DNA of 64,000 nt from NCBI RefSeq assembly GCF_041886205.1, contig NZ_CP169029.1, one strand, 5' to 3'. A program made the translations under genes and the position numbers. Source of the stretch: Escherichia coli (lineage in GTDB: Bacteria; Pseudomonadota; Gammaproteobacteria; Enterobacterales; Enterobacteriaceae). The notes under the pieces are model-generated. The model was not told where the DNA came from, did not search any database, and saw nothing but the letters and a program-made list of their open reading frames with translations. Below, one piece after another: positions 1 to 35,825 of the stretch; the stretch's first letter is position 1; each line of letters opens with the position of its first letter.

Positions 1-114
1 GCAAGCCTGACTACAGGGAGCGTCATGACATAATAAACAGCGAGAGGCTTCTTTAATCGCCAGTAAAGGCGTAAAAGCCGGAGTGAGTTCATCCAGATAA
101 TTTTGTTGCGGCAT
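1..114 (-). CDS. preT: NAD-dependent dihydropyrimidine dehydrogenase subunit PreT, 5' end only (gene continues past window start)
   Basis: Reverse-strand ATG at 114 followed by MPQQNYLDELTPAFTPLLAIKEASRCLLCHDAPCSQAC, open to position 1; matches remembered PreT N-terminus and expected neighbour of yeiS. Confidence 0.75.
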   Translation of the reverse strand, partial: MPQQNYLDELTPAFTPLLAIKEASRCLLCHDAPCSQAC

Positions 115-307
115 GTGATCTTCCTTAATGCTATGAGTAATTAAGGCGAACGCTAAATAAATATTGCGTGCTGATATTAAGGCTAAGCGTGTGGGGAAAT
201 TTAAACTGTGAAAGGATTCACAATTAGCTGCGGTTCAGAATGTTATATCCGCAGCTTATTGAGTGAAGTAATAATTATTCTCAATAATTAACAGAAAAGA
301 GAAAATA

Positions 308-2303
<1,996 letters not shown>

Positions 2304-8468: not shown

Positions 8469-9665
8469 ATGATGACTAAAGTGACACGCGCAGTAATTGT
8501 GGGAGGCGGGATCGGCGGTGCGGCAACTGCGCTGTCACTGGCCCGCCAGGGGATCAAAGTGGTGCTGCTGGAAAAGGCGCATGAGATTGGTGAGATTGGC
8601 GCGGGCATCCAGTTGGGGCCAAATGCGTTTTCGGCGTTGGATAGCCTCGGCGTCGGCGAAATCGCCCGCCAGCGCGCGGTATTCACCGATCACATCACCA
8701 TGATGGATGCGGTAAACGCCGAAGAAGTGGTGCGCATTGAAACCGGTCAGGCCTTTCGCGACCATTTCGGCGGCCCTTACGCGGTGATCCACCGGGTTGA
8801 TATTCACGCCTCGGTGTGGGAAGCGGTACTGACGCATCCGGACGTGGAATATCACACCTCCACCAACGTCGTGGATATTCGTGAGACGGAAGACGATGTC
8901 ACCGTGTTTGACGATCGCGGCAATAGCTGGAGCGGCGATATTCTGATTGGCTGTGATGGCGTGAAGTCAGTGGTGCGCCAGAGCTTATTAGGCGATGCGC
9001 CGCGCGTCACCGGACATGTGGTCTACCGCGCAGTTATCGATTGTGCGGATATGCCGGAAGATTTGCGCATTAACGCACCAGTACTGTGGGCGGGGCCGCA
9101 CTGTCACCTGGTGCATTACCCTTTGCGCGGCGGCAAGCAGTATAACCTGGTGGTGACATTCCACAGCCGCCAGCAGGAAGAGTGGGGCGTGAAGGATGGC
9201 AGTAAAGAGGAAGTGCTCTCTTACTTTGAAGGGATTCACCCCCGTCCTCGCCAGATGCTGGATAAACCGACCTCCTGGCGACGCTGGTCAACCGCCGACC
9301 GTGAACCGGTAGCGAAGTGGGGAACGAAGCGCATTACGCTGGTTGGCGATGCGGCCCATCCGGTGGCGCAGTATATGGCGCAGGGTGCCTGTATGGCGTT
9401 GGAAGACGCGGTAACGCTCGGCAAGGCGCTGGCGCAGTGTGAGGGGGATGCGGCGCAAGCCTTTGCACTGTATGAGTCGGTACGTATTCCGCGCACCGCG
9501 CGCATCGTCTGGTCGACCCGTGAAATGGGGCGGGTTTATCACGCCGCAGGAGTAGAGCGCCAGGTACGAAACCTGCTGTGGAAAGGTAAATCGCAGGCAG
9601 AGTTTTACCGCGGCATGGAGTGGCTGTACGGCTGGAAAGAAGATAACTGTCTGCAACCACGCTGA
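8469..9665 (+). CDS. 3-hydroxybenzoate 6-hydroxylase (FAD-dependent monooxygenase), 398 aa
   Basis: Rossmann GxGxxG ([20 protein letters not shown]) near N-terminus; salicylate-hydroxylase-like length; last gene of cluster. Confidence 0.8.
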
Positions 9666-9726: not shown

Positions 9727-10674
9727 ATGCGTGTGTTACTGGCGCCGATGGAGGGTGTGCTTGACTCTCTGGTGCGTGAATTGCTGACCGAAGTTAACGA
9801 CTACGATCTGTGCATCACCGAGTTTGTCCGCGTGGTGGATCAACTGCTGCCGGTAAAAGTCTTTCATCGCATTTGCCCTGAGCTACAAAACGCCAGCCGG
9901 ACACCATCCGGTACGCGGGTGCGCGTTCAGTTGTTAGGTCAGTTCCCACAATGGCTGGCAGAGAACGCCGCCCGTGCGGTGGAATTAGGTTCCTGGGGCG
10001 TGGATCTCAATTGCGGCTGCCCGTCGAAAACGGTTAACGGCAGCGGCGGCGGGGCGACGTTACTCAAAGATCCTGAACTCATCTACCAGGGTGCAAAAGC
10101 GATGCGTGAAGCTGTACCGGCGCATTTGCCCGTCAGCGTGAAAGTGCGTCTGGGCTGGGACAGCGGTGAGAAGAAATTTGAAATCGCCGATGCGGTTCAA
10201 CAGGCTGGTGCTACGGAGCTGGTGGTGCATGGACGGACAAAAGAGCAGGGTTACCGCGCGGAGCATATTGACTGGCAGGCGATTGGCGAGATTCGCCAGC
10301 GGCTGAATATTCCGGTGATTGCCAACGGTGAAATCTGGGACTGGCAGAGTGCGCAACAATGCATGGCGATCAGCGGCTGCGACGCAGTGATGATTGGTCG
10401 CGGGGCGCTCAATATTCCCAACCTGAGCCGGGTGGTAAAATATAACGAACCGCGAATGCCGTGGCCGGAGGTGGTTGCTTTGCTGCAAAAATATACCCGT
10501 CTGGAAAAGCAGGGCGATACCGGGTTATATCACGTAGCGCGGATTAAACAGTGGTTGAGTTATTTGCGTAAAGAATACGATGAAGCAACAGAATTATTTC
10601 AGCATGTTCGGGTGTTGAATAATCCCCCTGATATTGCAAGGGCTATTCAGGCAATTGATATCGAGAAACTCTAA
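9727..10674 (+). CDS. dusC: tRNA-dihydrouridine(16) synthase DusC, 315 aa
   Basis: 315-aa ORF beginning [22 protein letters not shown]-barrel Dus family; synteny. Confidence 0.92.
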
Positions 10675-10715
10675 TAAACCATAGTGATGTTTTTTGACAA
10701 TGTGTTAGCTCTTTA

Positions 10716-10976
10716 TCAATAGGCCGCACGGTTGTTTGGTGGCGTCAAAATTGCCGAGGCGTTCCCTGAAGGCCGGGGCAGCCCACATGGATGTGGGCTG
10801 AGGGCGCGTTTTACAGGGATGTTACCTCGCGCCCGACCCGGTAGCCGTAAGGGATAAGCCGAGGGCACCGCGCAGCGGCGATTTTGTTCGCCAGAGCCCG
10901 GGGGTGCAGGGGGCGGCGGCGATTGGCCGCCCCCTGCGCGCTCCTTGCGCCAGTGATTATATGAAGCAATGCACAT
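10716..10976. repeat. GC-rich intergenic repetitive element with two perfect palindromes
   Basis: cagcccacat/atgtgggctg (10779-10800) and cagggggcggc/gccgccccctg (10907-10936) read directly; not canonical REP. Confidence 0.4.
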
Positions 10977-11045
10977 GACAGGAGCGCAACAGGATGAGAG
11001 ACTGAAATATTCTCGTTATTTTCGGACCTGATGACATTAATTAAT

Positions 11046-11129
11046 TTTAAAATATCATCTTAAATACGCCAGTCACCACCAGTAGCCCAATCAGGAAAAT
11101 AATCAATACAGCCCAGAGTATAATTTTCA
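11046..11129 (-). CDS. yohP: small membrane protein YohP, 27 aa
   Basis: Reverse-strand ORF MKIILWAVLIIFLIGLLVVTGVFKMIF, below track size cut-off; matches remembered YohP. Confidence 0.7.
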
Positions 11130-11353
11130 TTGGCGTTCCTTTATTTGTGAGTGCTGAATAAGTATAGGAAAAAACGAAGCCCTTTGCCGTTATCCATAAA
11201 CGATTAAGATAAATCGGAAGATATCATTCACTTAGTGTATATTTTTCTGGATATGTCGTTTTATTGCTACTGATGTATTGCCACGCGAAACTAAAAAATA
11301 TATCGCAACACACGGTAATCTCCGCGCACCTTTTCTTACCTGATTATTCCCCC

Positions 11354-12790
11354 ATGAATCGTGATTCCTTTTATCCCGCCATCGCCTGTTTTCCGCTGTT
11401 ACTGATGCTGGCCGGGTGTGCGCCTATGCATGAAACCCGCCAGGCGTTAAGCCAGCAAACGCCCGCTGCACAAGTTGACACCGCATTACCCACGGCGCTG
11501 AAAAATGGTTGGCCAGACAGCCAATGGTGGCTGGAGTATCACGATAATCAGCTCACTTCATTAATTAACAATGCACTACAGAACGCACCGGATATGCAGG
11601 TGGCTGAACAGCGCATTCAGCTAGCTGAAGCCCAGGCGAAGGCAGTTGCCACTCAGGATGGTCCGCAGATCGACTTTTCGGCGGATATGGAGCGGCAAAA
11701 AATGTCGGCAGAAGGCTTAATGGGGCCGTTTGCTCTGAACGATCCGGCCGCAGGTACGACCGGCCCGTGGTACACCAACGGTACTTTTGGCTTAACGGCG
11801 GGCTGGCATCTCGATATCTGGGGAAAGAATCGGGCGGAGGTTACTGCCCGCCTGGGTACGGTTAAAGCACGGGCGGCGGAACGCGAGCAAACCCGCCAAT
11901 TGCTGGCTGGCAGCGTAGCCCGCCTGTACTGGGAGTGGCAAACCCAGGCGGCGTTAAACACGGTCTTGCAGCAAATAGAAAAAGAGCAGAACACCATTAT
12001 CGCGACCGATCGCCAGCTATATCAGAACGGGATTACTTCTTCAGTTGAAGGTGTGGAAACCGATATTAATGCCAGCAAAACCCGGCAGCAGCTCAACGAT
12101 GTCGCGGGGAAAATGAAAATTATTGAGGCACGGTTAAGCGCACTTACAAATCACCAGACAAAGTCATTGAAGCTTAAACCGGTCGCGTTGCCGAAAGTGG
12201 CAAGCCAGCTTCCTGATGAACTGGGGTACTCCTTACTGGCCCGGCGGGCAGATTTGCAGGCGGCGCACTGGTACGTTGAGTCATCGCTAAGCACCATTGA
12301 TGCGGCAAAAGCGGCATTTTATCCTGACATCAACCTGATGGCCTTCCTGCAACAGGATGCGTTGCACTTAAGCGATCTGTTCCGTCATTCCGCGCAGCAA
12401 ATGGGCGTTACGGCAGGCCTGACGCTACCCATTTTCGATAGTGGTCGTCTTAACGCCAATCTCGATATCGCAAAAGCCGAAAGCAACTTGTCTATCGCCA
12501 GCTACAACAAAGCGGTGGTTGAAGCGGTGAATGACGTGGCGCGGGCAGCCAGTCAGGTTCAGACACTTGCGGAGAAAAACCAGCATCAGGCGCAAATTGA
12601 GCGCGATGCCTTGCGTGTGGTAGGTCTTGCGCAGGCGCGCTTTAACGCGGGCATCATTGCTGGTTCCCGCGTCAGCGAAGCCAGAATCCCCGCGCTGCGT
12701 GAGCGGGCCAATGGCCTGTTATTGCAAGGGCAGTGGCTGGATGCCTCCATTCAACTCACTGGTGTGTTGGGCGGGGGTTACAAACGCTGA
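11354..12790 (+). CDS. mdtQ: outer-membrane efflux lipoprotein MdtQ (TolC/OprM family), apparently intact, 478 aa
   Basis: Track ORF 11264..12790 trimmed to MNRDSFYPAIACFPLLLMLAGCA lipobox start; continuous reading frame. Confidence 0.8.
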   Translation: MNRDSFYPAIACFPLLLMLAGCAPMHETRQALSQQTPAAQVDTALPTALKNGWPDSQWWLEYHDNQLTSLINNALQNAPDMQVAEQRIQLAEAQAKAVATQDGPQIDFSADMERQKMSAEGLMGPFALNDPAAGTTGPWYTNGTFGLTAGWHLDIWGKNRAEVTARLGTVKARAAEREQTRQLLAGSVARLYWEWQTQAALNTVLQQIEKEQNTIIATDRQLYQNGITSSVEGVETDINASKTRQQLNDVAGKMKIIEARLSALTNHQTKSLKLKPVALPKVASQLPDELGYSLLARRADLQAAHWYVESSLSTIDAAKAAFYPDINLMAFLQQDALHLSDLFRHSAQQMGVTAGLTLPIFDSGRLNANLDIAKAESNLSIASYNKAVVEAVNDVARAASQVQTLAEKNQHQAQIERDALRVVGLAQARFNAGIIAGSRVSEARIPALRERANGLLLQGQWLDASIQLTGVLGGGYKR

Positions 12791-15069: not shown

Positions 15070-15242
15070 AAAGTTCTTTGACGTTGCATTGCTGGCGTAA
15101 ATGTCAGCAATGCAGCATTTCCTCACGATTCTCCTTTGACGATCGCACTTTTTGCTCGTTATGATGGCGTCGCTAGCCTCAGTAAATCCTTACTCCGGCG
15201 GTGCGCAACCCGTGCGCGTGAACCACTATCTGAATGCTCATC

Positions 15243-35626: not shown

Positions 35627-35656
35627 AAATAAAAAAACCTGCTGGTGAGGCAGGTT
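35627..35656 (-). terminator. intrinsic terminator downstream of yehK, upstream of yehL
   Basis: Reverse strand reads aacctgc-ctcacca-gcaggtt followed by tttttttatt. Confidence 0.55.
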
Positions 35657-35825
35657 CTTTTATTTACTATTTTCAGGCCTAACACCACAGCCTGTGCAAC
35701 ATCGTGTTCCAACGAACGAATTATAACCACGGCTGGACCCCGTTGCAATTAAGATAATGAGATTTATAATCCAGACCGTTGGGACGTTGCGCCGGATCGG
35801 ACCAATTTGAATTATTTAGAGTATA

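Follow-up and report, generated by a model that had tools for sequence, protein, structure and literature searches.

Introduction

The TRIP1 repeat of Escherichia coli was named by Rudd in 1999 and re-described by Li et al. in 2024, who recognised five discrete TRIP1 loci with presence/absence polymorphism. In that description, TRIP1a lies between aqpZ and ybjE (lysO), TRIP1b follows putP, and TRIP1c starts approximately 43-44 bp past the stop codon of yohI (dusC), between dusC and yohP/mdtQ (yohG), with both forward and reverse copies counted at the dusC as well as the lysO locus. Under a second name, replication risk sequence RRS-dusC, the element was studied by Pham et al. (2023/2024), who equate RRS with TRIP1, and it is also treated in Kusi-Appauh et al. 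(2026). RRS-dusC and RRS-lysO are the two full-length ‘replication risk sequences’ flanking the terminus region, paired symmetrically at about 650 kb from dif, with a G-quadruplex (G4) placed on the lagging-strand template (Pham et al.). In K-12, the element has been reported to block polymerases and to trigger post-replication single-stranded DNA (ssDNA) gaps, with loading of RecA and SSB; the gaps appear wherever the element is transplanted, and the peaks are lost on its deletion. The pair was further found to be conditionally essential, changes in supercoiling were described, and single-molecule experiments provided confirmation. According to the same authors, the only other bacterial G4 that triggers gaps is the one associated with pilE of Neisseria gonorrhoeae.

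A family of a different kind, TwoAYGGAY (Rfam RF01731), was described by Weinberg et al. (2010) as a pair of hairpins bearing AYGGAY loops, which a long P1 helix encloses; published members from Psychromonas also display AGGGAY variants, and the family has been proposed in the literature to bind CsrA. Here, we analysed a G+C-rich, palindromic segment located between dusC and yohP in a 64-kb stretch of E. coli DNA (contig NZ_CP169029.1; hereafter, the window). The segment is the known repeat TRIP1c, that is, RRS-dusC, and neither a gene nor a new element. At its core, this finding is nothing new, the element having been named since 1999 and studied functionally since 2023; the residual interest lies in a link to TwoAYGGAY and in naturally flipped alleles.

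Results

The segment between dusC and yohP is TRIP1c

Window positions 10680-11000 (321 nt) are 100% identical to E. coli K-12 MG1655, in the same place between dusC and yohP, and a TRIP1-derived model, R1, matches at the equivalent place in the K-12 chromosome (NC_000913.3). The placement is that of TRIP1c: the dusC stop codon is at 10674, similarity to TRIP1 starts at about 10712-10718, and the neighbours are yohP and mdtQ. The G+C content of the P1 domain is 0.63, within the range that, together with a very stable fold, has been published for TRIP1/RRS (62-65%). Because the complete identity to K-12, the synteny, the copy number, the other loci and the G4 motif all agree, we identify the segment as TRIP1c, and nothing in the analysis contradicts this identity. 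The first-pass annotation, which had offered a member of another repeat family among its possibilities, was correct on this point, TRIP1c being one of the 2-5 TRIP1 copies per E. coli genome, and missed that the element is the named and experimentally studied RRS-dusC. The identification has value for annotation: the segment is blank in RefSeq, yet it has been reported to be conditionally essential for chromosome topology.

Composition, boundaries and parts

Throughout, the sense (+) strand of TRIP1c is the G-rich strand bearing the G4 motif. The features of the element, of its surroundings and of related copies are collected in Table 1, where L numbers are our handles for sequences used in the comparisons.

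Table 1. Coordinates of TRIP1c, its parts, its neighbours and related copies (window positions unless an L number is given)
Feature	Position	Strand	Remarks
Whole TRIP1c	10712..10990	+	Span over which TRIP1 copies of separate loci resemble each other; starts ~40 nt past the dusC stop
Core	10736..10958	+	Near-perfectly common to the lysO-aqpZ copy; the ‘222-bp’ RRS of Pham et al.
P1 domain	10740..10892	+	Long helix, 10740-10756 with 10875-10892, enclosing a branched structure; from the inverted repeat, MFE folds and consensus fold
Hairpin 1	10779..10800	+	9-bp stem; loop context ACAUGGAUGU
Hairpin 2	10802..10834	+	Lower stem GGGCGCG/CGCGCCC, internal loop, apical ACAGGGAUGU
G-quadruplex-forming motif GGGGGTGCAGGGGGCGGCGG	10900..10919	+	Exact match to the published RRS motif; single occurrence in the window
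G/C hairpin	10906..10937	+	12-bp arms, 8-nt loop; overlaps the G4 motif
3′ tail	10938..10990	+	Stem GCGCTCCT (10938-10945) with AGGAGCGC (10980-10987); conserved AGGAGCGCAAC (10980-10990)
dusC	9727..10674	+	Left neighbour; body lies in the stretch expected to stay single-stranded
yohP	11047..11130	-	Right neighbour, convergent with dusC
Spurious 86-codon ORF	10716..10976	-	ATG start; Pro/Gly/Ala-rich
Flipped O157-type copies	L002 3001-3260; L136 695-854; L137 ~25062		Inverted relative to K-12 and the window
Element X and a relative	L033 2177-2337; L120 5629-5789; L127 2998-3155	+	Diverged TRIP1 paralogue (Pseudocitrobacter) and a relative in Klebsiella variicola

Much of what the first-pass annotation had read from the letters holds. 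Both perfect inverted repeats are present as described, namely, CAGCCCACAT/ATGTGGGCTG, with arms at 10779-10788 and 10791-10800, and GCAGGGGGCGGC/GCCGCCCCCTGC, at 10906-10917 and 10926-10937, the latter with arms of 12 nt, one base longer than noted, around the 8-nt loop. The G+C content, described there as unusually high, is 0.56-0.74 in 100-nt intervals across 10700-10999, against 0.34-0.39 in either flank; within the element proper, it reaches 0.65-0.74. The segment of about 260 bp is real as well, whereas its extent had been set slightly too small, given that the conserved element measures about 275 bp (approximately 10712-10990). Finally, a match to the canonical REP sequence had been denied, and the naRNA4 model, which does find REPs in other loci, yielded none at E<=1 in 10000-12000.

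In the 3′ tail, GGAGCGCAAC is invariant in a 6-copy alignment and is kept in 14 of 15 copies. We also observed that, within window positions 10980-11006, the invariant AGGAGCGCAAC resembles a ribosome-binding site and is followed, 4 nt later, by an ATG. The ORF that starts there has 3 codons (ATGAGAGACTGA) in the window, 9 codons in TRIP1a and more in the O157 allele, without conservation of the peptide.

Distribution of TRIP1 and empty sites

TRIP1 matches were found in 5425 of the 5426 complete E. coli genomes, at a median of 3 places per genome, with both halves of the element repeated. The other copies in K-12 are located between lysO and aqpZ (94% identical) and, in truncated form, between putP and efeU, downstream of putP; no second copy was detected within the 64-kb window by BLAST or with a covariance model. 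On the two points that the first-pass annotation had proposed to check, copy number and comparison across strains, the element is multi-copy, and its presence/absence and orientation vary among strains. In K-12 coordinates, RRS-dusC occupies 2,229.1-2,229.4 kb and the lysO copy 915.0-915.3 kb. With dif near 1.589 Mb in K-12, a position that agrees with the published RecA/SSB-enriched intervals, the distances to these two copies are about 640 and 674 kb, respectively.

A scan of a genome collection with the conserved 18-mer TTGGTGGCGTYAAAATYG returned at least 120 loci, the majority being fortuitous hits outside the phylum; among the matches listed, there are about 13 true copies, from Escherichia species and Pseudocitrobacter, and two tiny contaminant-like contigs. 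The Pseudocitrobacter copy occupies a different locus, smdB-glnK. The tiny, low-coverage contigs with TRIP1 in assemblies of Pseudobutyrivibrio (L030) and Bacillus (L106) look like contamination.

Orthologous loci were fetched via the DusC and AqpZ proteins and, being empty, added no sequences to the covariation analysis described below. No TRIP1 copy is present in the 43-nt dusC-yohP spacer of E. fergusonii (L130 3940-3982), at the dusC locus of Citrobacter braakii and C. amalonaticus (L131, L132 3952-4135), or between aqpZ and lysO in C. freundii, Klebsiella pneumoniae and Atlantibacter (L133 3197-3464; L134; L135). The dusC-yohP spacers of E. fergusonii and Citrobacter hold a simple terminator hairpin only, and the aqpZ-lysO spacer of C. 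freundii contains what we take to be an ERIC-like sequence. As judged from these sequences, the TRIP1 family has a history of gain, loss or replacement.

Deletion derivatives of the element were observed as well (L003 2931-3012; L105 5695-5830; L006 1856-1994; L004 3990-4121; L042 1068-1217). In the lysO copy of ST131, a 77-nt deletion removes exactly both AYGGAY-type hairpins; one Escherichia copy lacks only hairpin 1 (25 nt); and about 125 nt of the P1 interior is missing from TRIP1b and two other copies. Two TRIP1 copies in inverted orientation, 1-128 (-) and 432-592 (+), were observed some 300 bp apart on a 2.8-kb contig (L032) that is filed as a proteobacterial MAG; one of them has the dusC-side flank of the window. 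The contig probably represents E. coli DNA that underwent a rearrangement mediated by TRIP1, or else a misassembly.

Flipped alleles of the O157 type

At the dusC-yohP locus, 3317 genomes display the K-12-type arrangement, whereas about 2100 of the 5426 match in the flanks only, with a span of 719 bp. O157:H7 carries a different spacer allele at this locus; its copy of the element shows 89% identity and runs in the reverse direction with respect to dusC and yohP. In an O157-like strain, the lysO-aqpZ copy is inverted too. In the O157 strain examined, the G-run of the element falls on the strand with negative GC skew, i.e., on the leading-strand template. We considered a clean in-place flip between the K-12 and O157 types and rejected it: the whole spacer differs, such that no inversion boundaries are definable.

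The element differs by about 11% between the two alleles (window 10736-10990 versus L002), the dusC and yohP flanks being 98-99% identical, and the two full-length copies of K-12 itself differ by only 6%. The sequences suggest that the divergence between the alleles may reflect gene conversion between copies or allele replacement. Two further matches, H113 and H137, come from individual E. coli strains: one carries an IS1 insertion between dusC and yohP, and in the other, similarity sets in halfway through the element and covers only the yohP side, the pattern that the TRIP1a/TRIP1c inversions of Li et al. would produce.

The flipped alleles, along with the empty orthologous sites, imply that position and orientation are not universally strict. 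Natural flips and empty loci in sister genera test the claims of conserved RRS orientation and of a position conserved across enterobacteria: at least at the dusC and lysO loci, both are less conserved than the published summaries indicate.

Selection on the fold

Folded as RNA, the + strand reaches -143.8 kcal/mol, with z = -5.4, and the - strand has z = -4.6; folded as DNA, positions 10736-10958 give z = -6.6 (+) and -5.6 (-). The z-scores were computed against 200 shuffles of the same dinucleotide content, none of which folded as well in any of the four tests. The covariation analysis used an alignment of 15 full-length copies, originating from E. coli, E. albertii, E. whittamii, cryptic Escherichia and two Pseudocitrobacter species. 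Their consensus structure comprises 76 pairs, with 99% of the cells paired, and 8 pairs show compensatory double changes, a number reached by 0 of 500 shuffles, with slid controls giving 0-2. These pairs are spread over hairpin 1 (three stem pairs, in copies L104 and L106), the base of the hairpin 2 stem (G-C to A-U in the same two copies), the G/C hairpin overlapping the G4 motif (two C-G to A-U changes in O157-type copies), the P1 inner helix and the 3′ tail (one pair). The loops ACAUGGAUGU and ACAGGGAUGU, in the meantime, hardly vary among copies while the stems covary.

By this pattern, the fold is subject to strong selection, both purifying and compensatory. That every hairpin is kept through compensatory evolution and the GGA loops stay fixed points to selection on the entire fold rather than on the G-quadruplex alone. 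The near-invariance of the GGA loops further suggests that something may recognise them specifically; a model centred on the G4 leaves the loops unexplained. One-sided changes give G-U on the + strand in 6 pairs and suit the - strand in 3, a bias that agrees with + being the functional strand and is not significant; the raw G-U count of 56 versus 3 was discarded as a measure of strand asymmetry, being biased by the prediction of the structure on the + strand. The first-pass annotation had also thought of a structured RNA: the z-scores and compensatory changes bear out the structure, whereas no evidence of an RNA was found, and the published function is at the DNA level.

Relationship to TwoAYGGAY

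No known RNA family was detected in the region of the element at curated Rfam thresholds. The sole Rfam match to the element itself, at 10732-10883, is to TwoAYGGAY and covers the full model (1-168) with 30.9 bits (E 0.025), below the gathering threshold of RF01731 of 43 bits; other TRIP1 copies score 25.9-31.4 bits. The Rfam/Infernal scan that had been proposed as a check accordingly gave nothing above threshold and, for the element itself, this one sub-threshold match. Hairpins 1 and 2 of TRIP1c align to the first and second TwoAYGGAY hairpins, the loop of hairpin 1, AUGGAU, conforming to AYGGAY and that of hairpin 2, AGGGAU, having G in place of Y; the long P1 helix is present, too (Table 1).

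A bridge between the two families is provided by Pseudocitrobacter, where a second G+C-rich element (element X) and the TRIP1 copy face each other head-to-head in the interval from smdB to glnK-amtB. The core of element X scores 49.2 bits against RF01731, above the threshold, and element X also matches a TRIP1-only covariance model over its full length, with 38.1 and 36.7 bits (E ~1e-6). It aligns collinearly with TRIP1 and, as an intermediate, links TRIP1 to accepted TwoAYGGAY members. A relative from Klebsiella variicola scores 31.3 bits against the TRIP1-only model, with loops that depart from AYGGAY. Element X is essentially absent from E. coli, with one partial match in 5426 genomes. Our literature search found no paper linking TRIP1/RRS with TwoAYGGAY or CsrA, or CsrA with dusC, and 0 of 6 enterobacterial accession numbers occur in the available portion of the TwoAYGGAY alignment of Weinberg et al.

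Strand placement

The GC skew of the window is +0.034 on the motif-bearing + strand, a composition typical of the leading strand; therefore, + is the lagging-strand template. By GC skew, the G4 motif accordingly falls on the lagging-strand template in the window and, likewise, in K-12, and not in the O157-type strains. The published RecA/SSB-enriched interval of K-12, 2229192-2231691, maps from window position ~10920, next to the G4 motif, toward lower coordinates over dusC. Such a placement would be expected from a halt, at the fold, of the polymerase that copies the + strand into Okazaki fragments.

Other features of the window

An Rfam match to AgvB at 10964-11024 (-), in the yohP 3′ region, scores 22.9 bits (E 0.18), the cut-off being 56, and is probably due to chance. 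Directly upstream of dusC lies a gene for 3-hydroxybenzoate 6-monooxygenase (8469-9665; named from the annotation of the O157 homologue), which in O157 and Citrobacter is part of a gentisate-pathway cluster; K-12 lacks the cluster and has yohJ next to dusC. The TRIP1c allele of the window is of the K-12 type despite the gentisate cluster upstream. Above-threshold Rfam matches elsewhere in the window include the Peptidase-S11 RNA motif at 15158-15238 (+), a TPP riboswitch at 59212-59308 (+) and the OrzO-P antitoxin RNA at 35631-35706 (-), which presumably belongs to a zor-orz type I toxin-antitoxin locus.

Discussion

The segment between dusC and yohP is very probably best explained as TRIP1c/RRS-dusC acting through a fold that triggers a gap on the lagging strand. 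Under this mechanism, the fork would travel from low to high window coordinates, with the + strand as the lagging-strand template. Once unwound, the + strand would fold quickly into the P1 helix, three G+C-rich hairpins and a G-quadruplex at 10900-10919, and the Okazaki-fragment polymerase, meeting the fold from its 3′ side, would stop. A single-stranded gap of up to about 2 kb would be left, from ~10920 back over dusC, onto which SSB and RecA would load; as proposed by the authors of the RRS studies, such a transient gap may serve as a swivel that relieves topological stress near the Ter macrodomain. To the identity, copy number, conserved fold and strand placement observed in this analysis, the literature on the identical K-12 sequence, and that literature only, adds the polymerase block, the gaps, the conditional essentiality and the effects on supercoiling. 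By analogy with K-12, the same gap behaviour would be expected in this strain. Against the mechanism count the O157-type allele of about 2100 genomes, which, in the one O157 strain that was examined, places the G-run on the template of the leading strand; the lack of a copy at the orthologous loci of E. fergusonii, Citrobacter, Klebsiella and Atlantibacter; and the invariant hairpin loops, which a ‘G4 only’ model does not explain.

Other readings of the same segment have to be weighed. The reverse-strand ORF, with its 86 codons and ATG start, could be imagined to encode a small proline- and glycine-rich protein, but there is virtually no chance of this: in 14 of the 15 homologous copies, a stop codon closes the frame by the sixth codon, 4 contain a frameshift, no Pfam family matched the 86-codon ORF, none of the natural deletions (about 77, 25 and 125 nt) has a length divisible by three, and G+C-rich DNA gives long ORFs by chance in several frames. 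A protein-coding gene is rejected because the frame is not conserved among copies and finds no Pfam match, in line with the first-pass annotation, which had considered the ORF probably not to be a gene. Very unlikely, too, is a role in the manner of REP/BIME, as a bidirectional transcript-end or mRNA-stabilising structure for dusC and yohP. The element does sit between these convergent genes, where E. fergusonii and Citrobacter have just a terminator hairpin, and both of its strands fold very stably; however, no T-run follows any hairpin and a terminator scan found none, a 275-bp multi-domain structure with sequence-invariant loops far exceeds the needs of a terminator, and other TRIP1 copies are not located between convergent genes. 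The view that TRIP1 is mainly a relic of a non-autonomous, MITE-like mobile element, any function having been acquired secondarily, is unlikely on balance. Much of the distribution fits it, namely, the five discrete, polymorphic loci, the sites that are empty in E. fergusonii, Citrobacter, Klebsiella and Atlantibacter, the different locus in Pseudocitrobacter, the reversal of orientation at one and the same locus between E. coli lineages and the internal deletion derivatives, as does a weak 7-nt similarity of the termini (TTGCGCT... versus ...AGGAGCGCAA). Yet these terminal repeats are short and imperfect, no transposase partner was found, no target-site duplication is evident on comparison of filled with empty sites, the flanks of which are not alignable, and the difference between the intergenic regions of the K-12 and O157 types extends over their whole length, unlike that left by a clean insertion or flip. 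The strong purifying and compensatory selection on the fold and the reported conditional essentiality of the RRS pair also speak against a mere relic.

TRIP1 or its P1 domain might, in addition, be a structured RNA, the 3′ end of the dusC mRNA, with two GGA-loop hairpins that bind a CsrA dimer. We regard this as distinctly unlikely, although several observations point in its direction. The TwoAYGGAY match extends over the full model of a family with a proposed link to CsrA, but its score is under the Rfam gathering threshold. The loops ACAUGGAUGU and ACAGGGAUGU, 28 nt apart, fit the CsrA SELEX consensus ruACArGGAugu, with GGA in the hairpin loop, and are invariant in the midst of covarying stems; still, the loop pattern occurs 2 times in the window against 0.55 expected, which is weakly above chance, 10 of 100 shuffles having reached 2, and the loops of the Klebsiella relative depart from AYGGAY. 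The terminator scan detected no terminator between dusC and the element, but the orientation is inconsistent among copies (sense with dusC, antisense to aqpZ/lysO, putP and smdB), and no promoter-like site adjoins the element, the only one, at 11031-11058, being well outside. The tendency of one-sided changes toward G-U on the + strand, 6 versus 3, would suit an RNA and is not significant. In the gene table of the E. coli CsrA CLIP-seq paper, the entries for dusC and ybjE read ‘No’ in all four yes/no columns, although reads from repeats may have been lost in mapping.

For these reasons, we retain the reading as TRIP1c/RRS-dusC with a fold-triggered gap, to which we add, tentatively and as a possibility that is less probable than its opposite, that the P1 domain of TRIP1/RRS might be a diverged member of TwoAYGGAY. 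Were this the case, the TwoAYGGAY sequences of Psychromonas, Clostridiales and gut metagenomes could be RRS-like DNA fold-backs, and gap-triggering elements acting at the DNA level would be widespread; alternatively, RRS elements could have a second life as CsrA-binding transcripts. The link, both structural and in sequence, between TRIP1 and an orphan Rfam family may be useful to those who work on RRS.

How the element compares with known systems can be stated for each of them. Like REP/BIME and naRNA4 transcripts, TRIP1 is G+C-rich, palindromic, intergenic and repeated, but it is about 275 bp long and present in 2-5 copies, whereas REP consists of ~35-bp units in hundreds of copies, and there is no match in sequence or model between the two. 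With the CsrA-sequestering RNAs of the CsrB/CsrC type it shares GGA in hairpin loops matching the SELEX consensus; unlike these, it has only two such sites, no transcript evidence and no match to the CsrB/CsrC models. The pilE G4 of N. gonorrhoeae has a different sequence and serves pilin antigenic variation, and, to our knowledge, no multi-hairpin domain surrounds it. TwoAYGGAY and TRIP1 have in common the adjacent hairpins with (C)AUGGAU(G)- and AGGGAY-type loops and the long P1 helix; by contrast, TRIP1 is much more G+C-rich and has an extra G4 hairpin and a tail, and TwoAYGGAY is filed as RNA, whereas the evidence on TRIP1/RRS is at the DNA level. TRIP1a, or RRS-lysO, the partner at lysO-aqpZ, shows 94% identity over 270 nt and has the fold and G4 motif in common with TRIP1c; its locus is outside the window, its flanks and 3′ tail differ from those of TRIP1c, and in some lineages it has undergone the 77-nt deletion described above. 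With TRIP1c/RRS-dusC of K-12, finally, locus, sequence, length, G+C content, G4 motif, strand and family copy number are all the same, the element itself showing no difference, and the strain departs from K-12 upstream of dusC, where it carries the gentisate-pathway cluster.
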